Positions 32,144-36,254 of a DNA stretch of 64,000 nt are shown here, one piece after another. The position numbers and the translations under genes were made by a program. Each line of letters starts with the position of its first letter. Position 1 is the stretch's first letter. The notes under the pieces are model-generated. The model was not told the DNA's origin and made no database searches. It worked only from the letters and a program-made list of their open reading frames with translations. Origin of the DNA: Candidatus Nanopelagicales bacterium (GTDB taxonomy: Bacteria > Actinomycetota > Actinomycetes > S36-B12); contig JAQTZL010000003.1 of NCBI GenBank assembly GCA_028687755.1, positions 144,712 through 208,711 on the forward strand, written 5' to 3'.

Positions 32144-32929
32144 GTGGTCTTTCACAAGAAAGAAAAAATTCAGCTCAAATCACCTGAGCAAATTTTGCTC
32201 ATGCGTGCAGCCGGCTTGGTTGTTGCCAACGCGTTGCAGGCAGTTGAAGCAGCTGTAGCGCCGGGCGTCACGACAAAAGAACTCGATGCAATTGCCCATG
32301 AAGTTATTCGTTCCTCAAATGCAACGCCTTCGTTCTTGGGTTATCACGGTTACCCCGCTGCTATCTGTTCGTCAATTAACGAAGAAGTGGTGCATGGCAT
32401 TCCTAGTGATCGCCAACTGATTGACGGCGACATCATTTCGATCGACTGCGGTGCAATTGTCAATGGTTGGCATGGGGATGCAGCGATCAGTGTGATGGTA
32501 GGCAATGCAAAGCCTGATGTGATGAAGCTTTCTAAAGTAACTGAACAGTCATTGTGGGCTGGCCTTGGTCAAGCGCGTGCTGGAAATCGGCTTTCTGATA
32601 TCGGCCATGCTGTTGAAACTGTTGTAAGAGCCGCTGGAAACTACGGAATTCTGGAAGATTACGTTGGCCATGGCATCGGTACATCAATGCACATGCAGCC
32701 ACCGATTCCTAACTATGGAACTGCAGGCCGCGGTCCAGTGTTGAAAGTTGGCATGGTGTTAGCAATTGAACCAATGGTCACCATTGGTTCGCCAGAGGTT
32801 GAAGTGCTTCAAGACGGTTGGACGGTTGTCACTGAGGACCGTTCCTGGGCTTCCCATTGGGAACACACGGTTGCAATTACGCAAGAAGGTCCGTGGGTGC
32901 TCACTGCACTCGATGAAGTTCGTCTCTAG
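32144..32929 (+). CDS. map: Methionine aminopeptidase type I
   Basis: VVHGIP, IDCG...GWHGD, GHGIG, AIEPM, EHTV metal ligands. Confidence 0.98.
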   Translation: MVFHKKEKIQLKSPEQILLMRAAGLVVANALQAVEAAVAPGVTTKELDAIAHEVIRSSNATPSFLGYHGYPAAICSSINEEVVHGIPSDRQLIDGDIISIDCGAIVNGWHGDAAISVMVGNAKPDVMKLSKVTEQSLWAGLGQARAGNRLSDIGHAVETVVRAAGNYGILEDYVGHGIGTSMHMQPPIPNYGTAGRGPVLKVGMVLAIEPMVTIGSPEVEVLQDGWTVVTEDRSWASHWEHTVAITQEGPWVLTALDEVRL

Positions 32930-32945
32930 AAAGGTCTGGTCAACC

Positions 32946-33440
32946 ATGAAGAAAGTTCTCGCTGCAGCGTTTGCAGTATTCGCAATTGTTGTAGCGGCAC
33001 CTGCTCAAGCAGCGCCTGCCGCTCAGGAGGTCGTACTCGTTACGACACTGACAAGTGTCGGCACCAGCCTGAACACCATTGGCAATGTGAAGTACGGCTG
33101 GAATGACCTCAAGGGTGTGGCGAACTGGGGTAAAGAGCCAGTTTCGATTCGCCTGCAAGGTGACGTGGCCTACAAGAACGACAGTGGACCATTCAATGGC
33201 TACTACACAATTACCCGTGCTGATGGAGCCCAGTTGGCATTCCATGTTGACGGACAGGCTTTGGCTATCCCTGTGGCTGCTGGAACCAAGACCAAGTTCC
33301 ATGGCGTGATGAGTTTCTTGCAAGGTTCAGGTGCGTACTCGAATGCGCAGTCAACGGGAACGATGGTTGGTGCACGCGAAGCGGCCATTGGTAGCCCAGT
33401 GCAAATGACCTTGCGTTTCACCATCGTTCCTCGCGGCTAG
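32946..33440 (+). CDS. Secreted hypothetical protein, 164 aa, predicted beta-rich
   Basis: ATG at 32946 gives the MKKVLAAAFAVFAIVVAAPAQA signal peptide; the track start of 32766 overlaps map and is too long. Confidence 0.8.
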   Translation: MKKVLAAAFAVFAIVVAAPAQAAPAAQEVVLVTTLTSVGTSLNTIGNVKYGWNDLKGVANWGKEPVSIRLQGDVAYKNDSGPFNGYYTITRADGAQLAFHVDGQALAIPVAAGTKTKFHGVMSFLQGSGAYSNAQSTGTMVGAREAAIGSPVQMTLRFTIVPRG

Positions 33441-33444
33441 TTTG

Positions 33445-33588
33445 TTAGTGATGACCCTTGTTGATCATGCCGATCATCTTGAGGTTCAAGCCAGCAAAGC
33501 GAAACAACTGCACAAACAGGTTCTTGCGCGCTTTGAGATCTTTGGCCGTTGGTAATGGTGCATTGGGAAATGTTTCGAGAGTAGACAT
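33445..33588 (-). CDS. Unannotated 47-aa basic amphipathic protein downstream of SQR
   Basis: Manual translation MSTLETFPNAPLPTAKDLKARKNLFVQLFRFAGLNLKMIGMINKGHH*. RBS AAGGTGA upstream; ATG 14 nt after the SQR stop. Below the ORF-track length cutoff. Confidence 0.8.
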   Translation of the reverse strand: MSTLETFPNAPLPTAKDLKARKNLFVQLFRFAGLNLKMIGMINKGHH

Positions 33589-33602
33589 GAGTGACTCACC
33601 TT

Positions 33603-35060
33603 CTATTCGGGGATTAAGTACCAAAACGGGCGAGCTTTTGCTTTGTAGATGAAGAGGTAATGCAACATCACTTTCATCCAGTGCGCGCTCAAACCAATTT
33701 CGCCGTAGGTCTCCTTGGTATCTCGACCCATCTCGCCGTACTTTTCTTTGTCAGGAATGATCGGGAATACCGTCATCGCTGCAGCGGTTCCCGTGCGCCA
33801 ACCTTTACCTGCAGAAGCGATACAGGCCGCACCCATGTCTGCCATTGATGCAGTGTGAACCTTGCCTTCGGCTCCGTGCTTGATGCGTTCGGCAATGCTT
33901 TGCGCAACGGCTCGACCAATGACGCCTGATGGCATGCCGGTGCGCGGTGGTGCCGGTGCGATCACCGTGCCATTTGGAGTGGTTCGGGGGCGTGACATCT
34001 GATGTGGGGGAGCGAATGCGATGCCAGCTGCCCAAACGTTGTCATATTTCACTGACTGGTAGGTCTTGGGCCAGTCACTTGCTTTCCACTCTTCGTACGG
34101 TTTAGCGGTGTAGTCGGCATCAACTTTCATGAAACCACTCGGCGCAAAAACCTCAGCAGTGATGTCATTGTTGTTGGCATCAAAGGCCTTCATGTCGACG
34201 CCACGAAAGGGTGGAAGCAACATTGCGAAGTCAAAGGACTGCTCGGATTTAGTGCCATCTATTTGCTCGTAATGCGCAACACCAGGTTCAACTTTTTCAA
34301 TGTGCGCAGACATGATTGCTTTGACGCCACGTTCATGAAAGAGCGATTCAGTGAACGTCTGGCTCGGAATAATTTGGTCTTTATGGCCGAAATTCATCCC
34401 ATCCATTCCGAAGTCACCAAGCTGTGCTTCGTTGGTGATGTAGATGACCTCGGCCTTGTCGCGAACGCCTTCTTTCACAAGTTCATGCTCAACATTGAAG
34501 GTGTACTCAAACGCGGCGCCCTGACATGTACACGTGCCATGCCCCATACCGATCAAGAGTGTTTGGTGTTGACCGGCTTTAAGTTTGTCGATGACTTCAT
34601 CAAAGGCTTTCGCAGTTTCAGTCGCGTGGCCTGCGGTGCACACTGACCAGGTGTAACCATCGGGTCCCAACCCCGGGGTTGCGCCAAAGTTCAGTTTTGG
34701 TCCGGTGGCATTGATGAGAAAGTCATATTCGAGATTGGCTTCTTGACCTTCGCGTGCTGGATCGGTGTAACGCACCGTGACGTGTGGGTGCGATTGGGCA
34801 GGCGAGCCTTCGGGATGAAGCTCGATCCCAAGTGCTTGGTGGAACTCAATGTTTTTTCGCTTATAAATAGGTGCAAGAGGGAACGTGACTTGCTTGACGC
34901 TCATCTGCCCGACGCCAACCCAAATATTTGAAGGGATCCAGTTCCACTTCGAGTTGGGGGCGACCACTACGACTTCGTGTTCCTTACCCAGCATCCGACG
35001 AAGGTGCAGCGCGGCGGTGTGACCAGCGATCCCAGCGCCCAAAATCACGGTTCTTGCCAT
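33603..35060 (-). CDS. sqr: Sulfide:quinone oxidoreductase (flavoprotein disulfide reductase family)
   Basis: GAGIAG FAD motif, WIPSNIWVGVG, three SQR-type Cys contexts (SVCTAGHA, TCQGAAFEY, ACIASAG), PRTG, C-terminal amphipathic KARPFWYLIPE; RBS AAGGAG. Confidence 0.9.
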   Translation of the reverse strand: MARTVILGAGIAGHTAALHLRRMLGKEHEVVVVAPNSKWNWIPSNIWVGVGQMSVKQVTFPLAPIYKRKNIEFHQALGIELHPEGSPAQSHPHVTVRYTDPAREGQEANLEYDFLINATGPKLNFGATPGLGPDGYTWSVCTAGHATETAKAFDEVIDKLKAGQHQTLLIGMGHGTCTCQGAAFEYTFNVEHELVKEGVRDKAEVIYITNEAQLGDFGMDGMNFGHKDQIIPSQTFTESLFHERGVKAIMSAHIEKVEPGVAHYEQIDGTKSEQSFDFAMLLPPFRGVDMKAFDANNNDITAEVFAPSGFMKVDADYTAKPYEEWKASDWPKTYQSVKYDNVWAAGIAFAPPHQMSRPRTTPNGTVIAPAPPRTGMPSGVIGRAVAQSIAERIKHGAEGKVHTASMADMGAACIASAGKGWRTGTAAAMTVFPIIPDKEKYGEMGRDTKETYGEIGLSAHWMKVMLHYLFIYKAKARPFWYLIPE

Positions 35061-35113
35061 TGCGTGCTCCTTGCCTCCAGCGCCAATCGATCAATTGGCT
35101 GCTCACTGAGGAG

Positions 35114-35136
35114 CCTATACCCCACAGGGGTATAGG
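35114..35136. promoter_or_regulatory. CsoR/CstR/RcnR-family operator-like palindrome upstream of sqr
   Basis: CCTATACCCC-ACA-GGGGTATAGG, perfect 10-bp inverted repeat with C/G tracts and AT-rich flanks, 53 nt upstream of the sqr ATG. Confidence 0.75.
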
Positions 35137-35201
35137 TGTTAGAGGCTAAAGTCCATAGTTGGAGCAGAAAGACTTCCGACAATTCGGGTAAATCACCCCG
35201 A

Positions 35202-35231
35202 TTGGACGTTGGGAACTTCGCCCCCTAGACT
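35202..35231 (+). promoter_or_regulatory. Putative promoter for infA-rpmJ-alpha operon
   Basis: TTGGAC-N18-TAGACT. Confidence 0.65.
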
Positions 35232-35344
35232 TTGCAGGCTGTCGTTGGCTTCCCCAACTACCCGCCACCTGATGTTTTGGTGGATGACGTATGTCCGGGG
35301 TTTCCAATGAAAGCGCCCACCACAACGAAGGACGATGCAAAAGC

Positions 35345-35566
35345 ATGGGTAAAAAAGACGGAGCGATCGAGCTTGAGGGCACGATCATGGAGTCTTTGCC
35401 TAATGCGATGTTTCGCGTGGAGTTGGACAACGGTCACAAAGTTCTTGCGCATATCAGCGGCAAGATGCGAATGCACTACATCCGCATCCTGCCTGATGAC
35501 CGCGTAGTTGTTGAACTTTCACCGTATGACCTCACCCGCGGCCGCATTGTCTATCGCTACAAATAA
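35345..35566 (+). CDS. infA: Translation initiation factor IF-1
   Basis: [27 protein letters not shown]; ATG at 35345. Confidence 0.99.
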
Positions 35567-35590
35567 CCACACGAGGACTGGCAAAACATC

Positions 35591-35704
35591 ATGAAGGTGA
35601 ACCCAAGCGTCAAGCCGATCTGCGATAAGTGCAAGGTCATTCGTCGCCATGGCCGCGTCATGGTGATCTGCGAGAACACTCGCCACAAGCAGCGTCAGGG
35701 CTAA
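35591..35704 (+). CDS. rpmJ: 50S ribosomal protein L36, Zn-binding form
   Basis: Manual translation [37 protein letters not shown]; not in the ORF track. Confidence 0.99.
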
Positions 35705-35876
35705 TACCTGACGAGGGTCAATGCGGGGAGAAATCCCGTACGACCTCAACTGTGAAGTACCCGACCCCCAGGTAACTGGGACGACACCTTGAGCCACGGG
35801 GCTCAAGACCTGATCTGACGGTCAGGGCTGGTACTTCAATCGAAACCCCGTGCATGAGAAGAAGAGAGAACGTCAC

Positions 35877-36254
35877 ATGGCACGTCTTGTTGGTGTCGAT
35901 CTGCCGCGCGAAAAGCGCATGGCAATCGCACTTACCTATATCTATGGCATTGGCCGCTCACAGGCCTCCGCTGCCCTCACCGCCACGGGCATTGATCCAG
36001 AAATGAAGTCCAAGGACCTCACCGACGATCAGACTCTTGCTCTGCGCGATTGGATCGATCAGAACCTCAAGGTTGAAGGCGATCTTCGCCGCGAGGTTGC
36101 AGCTGACATTCGCCGCAAGGTGGAAATTGGTTGCTACCAGGGTCTTCGCCACCGTAAGGGCCTTCCGGTCCGCGGCCAGCGCACCCATACCAACGCGCGT
36201 ACTCGTAAGGGTCCTCGTAAGACCGTCGCTGGCAAGAAGAAGGCCGCGAAGTAA
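35877..36254 (+). CDS. rpsM: 30S ribosomal protein S13
   Basis: [24 protein letters not shown]. Confidence 0.99.

Follow-up and report, generated by a model that had tools for sequence, protein, structure and literature searches.

We found that a 47-codon open reading frame (ORF) directly behind a gene for a sulfide:quinone oxidoreductase (SQR) in a Candidatus Nanopelagicales bacterium is almost certainly a real, conserved gene. As judged from sequence comparisons, its product belongs to an unnamed family of microproteins (43-65 aa) encoded directly 3' of one SQR type in the loci examined, and the function of the microprotein is very likely tied to this SQR type. SQRs have been described as single-subunit monotopic flavoproteins (PMC10892978). 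The strict linkage of the two genes suggests that this supposedly single-subunit SQR probably works with a small partner protein. The gene pair was analyzed in a 64,000-nt stretch of contig JAQTZL010000003.1 (hereafter the window), in related loci and genomes, and in protein databases.

The sqr-microprotein unit

The microprotein gene occupies positions 33445-33588 on the minus strand of the window, stop codon included (ATG at 33588-33586, TAA at 33447-33445), and was identified by its translation, homologues, substitution pattern and a helix predicted with AF2. The 47-aa product, MSTLETFPNAPLPTAKDLKARKNLFVQLFRFAGLNLKMIGMINKGHH, lacks cysteine and ends with HH. The start codon is located 14 nt past the TAG of sqr (33605-33603). 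A Shine-Dalgarno (SD)-like AAGGTGA (33596-33602, minus strand) adjoins the sqr stop codon and leaves a 7-nt spacer to the ATG. An ORF of this length, start position, SD motif and composition had been described in the original prediction, and the sequence agrees with that description, the strand being minus. The ORF is read in a frame different from that of sqr and is thus a separate cistron rather than a read-through extension. Such an extension was also rejected for the homologous loci, where the two genes are in frame in only 21 of 77 cases (about one third is expected by chance) and stop codons always intervene.

Only a convergent gene, with its stop codon 4 nt away, was found downstream of the microprotein gene, so that the unit in this genome consists of sqr and the small ORF. 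The convergent ORF adjoining the unit (32766-33440) encodes a secreted protein. Positions 32144-36254 of the window hold the sqr-microprotein unit and the secreted-protein ORF, on the opposite strand within the ribosomal-protein/secY/adk/map ... infA/rpmJ/rpsM cluster.

Conservation and coding signal

A set of 80 loci from public genomes (Nanopelagicales, Acidimicrobiia, Kineosporia, and other Actinomycetota), with SQR identities of 64-99%, was searched with a profile of the peptide. A homologous ORF was detected directly 3' of sqr on the same strand in 79 of the 80 loci; the sole miss is a contig that ends inside sqr. The microprotein is 47 or 48 aa long in 65 of 77 complete loci, and the start codon is ATG in 71 of 77. 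An SD-like motif is present at positions -16 to -6 in 64 of 77 loci, compared with 14% at random positions. The gap between sqr and the microprotein gene ranges from 3 to 79 nt, with a median of 15.

The substitution pattern indicates that the microprotein gene is under purifying selection. Closely related pairs gave dN/dS values of 0.08-0.2, and entropy at the three codon positions (1.08/0.77/1.37) is highest at the third. Synonymous sites are saturated in distant pairs, some high-GC pairs showing apparent values above 1; dN/dS of distant pairs is therefore unreliable, and only close pairs were used. Coding-type substitution had been put forward as a check in the original prediction, and it is present. 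The peptide evolves faster than the enzyme (35-83% vs 66-94% identity).

Since the ORF is short, it might be no functional gene at all but have arisen by chance, or else the region 3' of sqr might be conserved as an RNA or a terminator. We regard this as extremely improbable: the frame, length, start codon, SD and amino-acid motif are kept across phyla while the third codon position varies, and a terminator-like excess was not seen. A promoter and terminator scan revealed nothing above background.

The upstream enzyme

The sqr gene (33603-35060, minus strand) is preceded by the SD sequence AAGGAG (35067-35072, minus strand) and encodes a protein of 485 aa. Its sequence and predicted fold, examined through PDB sequence matches, AF2 and Foldseek, identify it as a probable SQR. 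The FAD-binding Rossmann motif GxGxxG (GAGIAGH) is found in VILGAGIAGHTAA at residues 5-17, and a Pyr_redox_2 match above cut-off was obtained. The closest solved relatives are the type I enzymes of Acidithiobacillus ferrooxidans and Aquifex aeolicus (E ~1e-33), compared with E-values of 1e-5 to 1e-7 for solved types II and V. Three cysteines align (phmmer) to the catalytic Cys128, Cys160 and Cys356 of the A. ferrooxidans SQR, with the pairings SVCT/SICT, CTCQGAAFEY/ASCFGPAYEY and AACIASAG/AVCFADMG. The AF2 model of an 84%-identical homologue has a pTM of 0.85, and its top Foldseek matches are all SQRs, with target TM scores of 0.83-0.85 to type I structures.

The enzyme is most probably of type IV (SqrD-like), a class assignment reached by inference from its relatives rather than by comparison with a reference SqrD sequence. 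Three observations argue for it. The nearest solved relatives are of type I, and types I and IV form one clade (PMC4584964). Sulfurovum and one member of the Chromatiaceae possess full-length homologues of 52-56% identity, and Chromatiaceae and Campylobacterota carry types IV and VI (PMC3368242, PMC4584964). Finally, Actinobacteria have been reported to carry type IV (PMC5702731, Table 1). Type VI was rejected: its third cysteine is located near residue 332, compared with ~413 here, type VI enzymes being much shorter before this cysteine (PMC9666304). The solved structures matched include no type IV SQR, the closest being type I.

Most SQR types possess two C-terminal amphipathic helices, which serve in membrane binding, oligomerization, and formation of the quinone site or channel, while types V and VI possess one (PMC9666304). 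In the model of the 84%-identical homologue the C-terminal part forms one long amphipathic helix (~457-474), after which comes a short aromatic tail, and the C-terminus is among the best conserved regions of the enzyme across phyla. A clade-specific insert (KAFDANNNDITAEVFAPSGFMKVDADYTAKPYEEWKASDWPKTYQ...) at residues ~291-350 (window ~34011-34190, minus strand) has no counterpart in the type I alignment. Across phyla this insert, too, ranks with the best conserved segments of the protein, and it is a candidate docking surface.

Features of the peptide

In the microprotein a variable N-terminal part precedes an AP-L-P-T motif, which leads into a cationic amphipathic helix (residues ~15-45). 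Among 64 actinobacterial sequences R21, Q27, R30 and F31 are invariant, and P13, N35 and G45 nearly so. The same R, Q, RF and N stay invariant across phyla (N35 near-invariant), giving the family signature P-x-P-[TS] ... R-x5-Q-x2-R-F-x3-N-x-[KR], the latter part of which falls in the C-terminal helix. The peptide of the window carries this signature as P11-L-P13-T14, R21, Q27, R30-F31, N35 and K37. AF2 with the family alignment predicted helices at residues 15-22 and 24-45 (mean pLDDT 89). The helix has a hydrophobic moment of 0.45-0.60 and the peptide a net charge of +5, in agreement with the Lys/Arg-rich amphipathic helix foreseen in the original prediction.

On a helical wheel, by our reading of its angles, Q27, F31 and N35 share one face, and R30 and K37 lie on another. 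That polar residues on the helix are invariant suggests that they touch a particular protein and do not simply bind lipid. An interfacial position would suit both the basic stripe and the hydrophobic face of the model. A transmembrane helix was rejected: Q27, R30, N35 and K37 fall within the only hydrophobic stretch, which is too polar to span a membrane. A role as a sulfur carrier or relay is excluded because the microprotein has no cysteine.

Distribution of the family

The pair of genes was also found in Campylobacterota, Chromatiaceae, Alphaproteobacteria, Bacteroidota and Zetaproteobacteria. Named plasmid records of Sulfurovum mangrovi, Candidatus Thiodictyon syntrophicum, Marivivens sp. 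and Chondrinema litorale contain the same SQR type (tblastn), with full-length identities to the SQR of the window of 52-56%. In all four records RefSeq lists a 52-53-aa "hypothetical protein" directly 3' of sqr, and these peptides match the actinobacterial profile at E-values of 1e-10 to 1e-13. In Sulfurospirillum, Ghiorsea and Thiocystis the microprotein gene again follows a gene for a Pyr_redox_2 protein of 485-488 aa. The other neighbors of the pair differ in every cross-phylum case, which indicates that the conserved unit is the pair and not a larger operon.

A search with the single sequence returned only four close clusters, and profiles were needed to reveal the family. With an E-value limit of 0.001, the profile search of 1.84 billion representative proteins recovered 423 clusters. 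Among the matches listed, almost every cluster is 46-90 aa long and has the core at the C-terminus, some with Pro/Ala-rich N-terminal extensions. Two of the most distant members listed are both encoded right behind an SQR 56-60% identical to that of the window. A profile built from non-actinobacterial members added 388 further clusters, all annotated as "hypothetical" and with no Pfam domain; their named sources include Thiocystis, Halochromatium, Thiohalocapsa, Thiothrix, Sulfurospirillum, Sulfurovum, Reichenbachiella and Ghiorsea. In one predicted protein of the representative library (P0058, 190 aa) the microprotein core, at residues 136-175, follows an N-terminal part that resembles metallo-beta-lactamases (persulfide-dioxygenase-like); a frameshift or a gene-calling artifact is the probable cause.

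No family for the peptide was found in Pfam-A or NCBIfam at E up to 1, and precomputed Pfam domains were absent from ~790 related clusters. A literature search, mostly outside subscription journals, found no paper linking SQR to such a small protein. The family thus appears to be undescribed in public annotation and in the literature searched, as the original prediction had supposed for this peptide. The same prediction mentioned similar short ORFs after actinobacterial SQR-like genes; this is correct and was an understatement, since the pair spans several phyla. The suggestion that the gene is likely missed by annotation needs to be qualified. For the family it does not stand: gene callers often report the peptide as a "hypothetical protein", and RefSeq has it in the four plasmid records.

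Co-occurrence with one SQR subtype

A six-frame search detected the peptide in 11 of 61 related genomes, each time directly after a same-strand sqr homologue. The 11 genomes that have this SQR subtype are exactly those with the peptide, which is present in none of the other 50 (Fisher p = 2e-12). Four of the 50 possess other SQR types (30-38% identity) and 46 have no SQR. In a sample of 400 genomes drawn evenly across the phylum, the subtype occurs in two, both peptide-positive downstream, one in a divergent form of 45 aa; no peptide was found downstream of sqr in the nine genomes of this sample with other SQR types. Judging by these genomes, the microprotein is inherited strictly together with this SQR type. 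Conservation of the ORF downstream of homologous sqr genes and co-occurrence with sqr, both proposed for checking in the original prediction, were therefore observed not only in the 80 loci but also in 11 of the 11 related genomes with the subtype, and in other phyla. The pair is present in only 7 of 13 genomes of the genus, and hence behaves as an accessory cassette.

Regulatory context

Upstream of sqr we found a perfect palindrome, ATACCCCTGTGGGGTAT (35117-35133), a candidate CsoR/CstR-type operator by its sequence. A second palindrome, GCCAATTGATCGATTGGC, is located in the sqr leader at 35082-35099. The core TACCCC-N3-GGGGTA occurs three times in the genome, from which the reversed control pattern is absent. 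Besides the copy at sqr, one lies in front of a CoA-disulfide-reductase-like gene (C15:8961) and one in front of a secreted-protein/thioredoxin/rhodanese cluster (C18:42547), and the three copies together suggest a small persulfide-type regulon. The sole CsoR-family gene of the genome (C1:163742-163981; L115 1465-1758) lies on another contig, far from sqr and beside an NDH-2-like gene. The encoded protein has a Cys-His-Cys spacing like that of copper-sensing CsoR (C...25...H-x3-C), and its signal may be copper or persulfide.

A CsoR-family gene is located directly 3' of the peptide gene in 31 of 77 related loci, in some of them followed by a gene for a CoADR-rhodanese and by cydAB. Where the peptide gene stands between sqr and a CsoR/CstR-family repressor gene, the peptide stop and the repressor start abut. 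Three metagenome contigs (L117-L119) have an operon of sqr, microprotein, CsoR-family repressor, CoADR-rhodanese fusion, a 57-aa ORF, methyltransferase and cydAB, which is a sulfide-detoxification cluster joined to a sulfide-tolerant terminal oxidase. The palindrome copies and the CsoR-family and CoADR-rhodanese neighbors indicate that the sqr-microprotein pair may belong to a sulfide/persulfide-type regulon.

A putative small subunit of SQR

We slightly favor the view that the microprotein is a physically bound small subunit of SQR at the membrane interface, binding being read from gene linkage only. Co-transcription, physical binding and a membrane role are what we infer from the sequences. 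It is proposed that sqr and the microprotein gene would be co-transcribed from a promoter under the CsoR/CstR-type operator, and that the microprotein would be translated from its own SD a few bases past the sqr stop. As a small subunit, the product would attach to SQR on the cytoplasmic side of the membrane. The helix of the microprotein (~24-45) may lie in the membrane interface with the basic stripe R30, K37 and K44 toward the lipid head groups, while the invariant Q27-F31-N35 stripe and the extended AP-x-P-T segment may pack on the SQR C-terminal domain. This domain appears to have one long amphipathic helix where most types have two; the partner would therefore help to anchor the enzyme and/or shape the region of the quinone site and oligomer contacts. 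The conserved single-helix C-terminus and the conserved insert make it plausible that a partner adds an interfacial helix in trans.

As a stand-in for the complex, AF2 was run on a natural in-frame sqr-linker-peptide read-through with stops set to Gly, using an alignment of 21 such read-throughs and unpaired rows. The enzyme part was modeled with confidence. The peptide helix had a pLDDT of 58-75, compared with 91-97 when folded alone, and was not docked with confidence. Covariation between SQR and peptide, measured as mutual information over 78 pairs (Neff ~41), mainly reflected clade-specific residues, and no SQR region was enriched. The possibility that the peptide is a detached SQR C-terminal helix, i.e. 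the product of a split gene, finds no support in the sequences. In an hmmsearch of the C-termini of 10 SQRs of other types with the peptide profile, no E-value below 0.6 was reached, and no SQR-length protein was found among the best 150 of 423 family matches.

The original prediction offered a membrane tether, an assembly factor or a regulator as roles, and our data are compatible with each of the three. The main rivals of the bound-subunit reading are an assembly factor and a moderator of activity. An assembly or targeting factor would act transiently, assisting SQR folding, FAD uptake or insertion of the amphipathic helix, and would be absent from the mature enzyme. Strict gene linkage and a short gap suit a dedicated chaperone equally well, no stable docking was obtained in the AF2 stand-in, and active expression of type IV and other SQRs in foreign hosts has been reported to be difficult (PMC9666304). 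We nevertheless consider this role unlikely. A helix of 47 residues with no cofactor-binding or enzymatic motif would be an unusual chaperone, its amphipathic cationic character suggests that the peptide sits at the membrane, and the position of the gene directly after sqr with an SD of its own suggests roughly equal production of the two proteins. The alternative of a regulator, which would tune SQR, for example by controlling access to the quinone site or restricting how much polysulfide is released, or would link SQR to a CsoR/CstR-type repressor, is likewise doubtful. It draws on the CsoR-family gene that directly follows the peptide gene in 31 of the 77 loci, on the candidate operator of the sqr in the window, and on small-protein moderators reported for the related NDH-2, such as YfhS in B. 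subtilis (bioRxiv 10.64898/2026.03.25.714349). The peptide follows SQR and not the repressor, however, which makes a repressor-centered role less likely: no repressor gene adjoins the pair in the window or in the Sulfurovum, Thiodictyon, Marivivens, Chondrinema, Sulfurospirillum, Ghiorsea and Thiocystis loci. The peptide also has no cysteine with which to sense sulfane sulfur.

The microprotein might also be linked to SQR in function while remaining physically independent, as a peptide of the membrane interface that would deal with the hydrophobic sulfur or polysulfide produced, or shield the membrane. An amphipathic cationic helix is typical of membrane-active peptides, and the AF2 stand-in, with no confident docking, would agree with such a role. 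But lipid contact alone hardly accounts for the retention of R21, Q27, R30 and N35 across phyla, no such peptide accompanies other SQR types that make the same product, and the peptide lacks cysteine; taken together, these points render an independent peptide quite improbable.

A stronger form of the bound-subunit reading can be put forward tentatively, although we think it will probably turn out to claim too much. Type IV (SqrD-like) SQRs might be obligate two-subunit enzymes, in which a partner of ~50 residues gives in trans the second interfacial helix that other SQRs carry in cis, completing the anchor and the quinone channel; the enzyme would then be inactive or mislocalized when the partner is missing.

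Comparison with known systems

CydX of cytochrome bd is a protein of less than 50 aa encoded in the operon of its enzyme, was long overlooked, and is needed for full activity. CydX-like subunits are single transmembrane helices of integral membrane complexes, whereas the SQR-linked peptide is too polar to span the membrane and its putative partner is a monotopic enzyme. A likeness can also be seen to YjlC-Ndh (NDH-2) of Bacillus subtilis, in which the enzyme, a flavoprotein that is likewise monotopic and quinone-reducing and shares the fold superfamily of SQR (Foldseek), is accompanied by a co-operonic small membrane-associated protein. The yjlC gene is located upstream of ndh and encodes a protein larger than the SQR-linked microprotein. 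The enzyme of this system oxidizes NADH rather than sulfide, and no sequence relationship of the peptide was found (no Pfam/NCBIfam match). The YjlC-Ndh complex (PDB 9a63) is among the Foldseek neighbors of the SQR homologue model, and has been reported as a two-protein NADH dehydrogenase (bioRxiv 10.64898/2026.03.25.714349).

Closer to SQR itself, the C-terminal helices of type I enzymes (Aquifex aeolicus, 3HYV/3HYW; Acidithiobacillus ferrooxidans, 3T31) are likewise amphipathic helices at the membrane face, and they contribute to anchoring, oligomerization and the quinone channel (PMC9666304). The helix described here differs in being a separate polypeptide with its own gene and invariant polar residues, and has no detectable similarity to SQR C-termini. 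In Allochromatium vinosum, Alvin_1196 and Alvin_1197 are located 3' of sqrF (type VI) and have been proposed to attach SqrF to the membrane (PMC10892978), so that there, too, genes directly 3' of sqr may supply membrane attachment. Those genes accompany type VI and not type IV, and encode other proteins; they are not universal with type VI, being absent in Thiocapsa bogorovii (PMC10892978). As none of these analogues is known to be related in sequence to the peptide, it was filed under none of them.

Implications for sulfide oxidation

The genome analyzed here represents a freshwater-type actinobacterium in which a complete sqr unit, apparently regulated by sulfide or persulfide, forms an accessory cassette that about half of the genus possesses. 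If the proposed partnership is true, the annotation of sqr would change, and the gene pair would provide a simple genomic marker of this SQR type. The explanation of how the enzyme binds to the membrane and forms its quinone site would change as well. A co-inherited partner would also alter the way in which this type of SQR should be expressed, purified and modeled.
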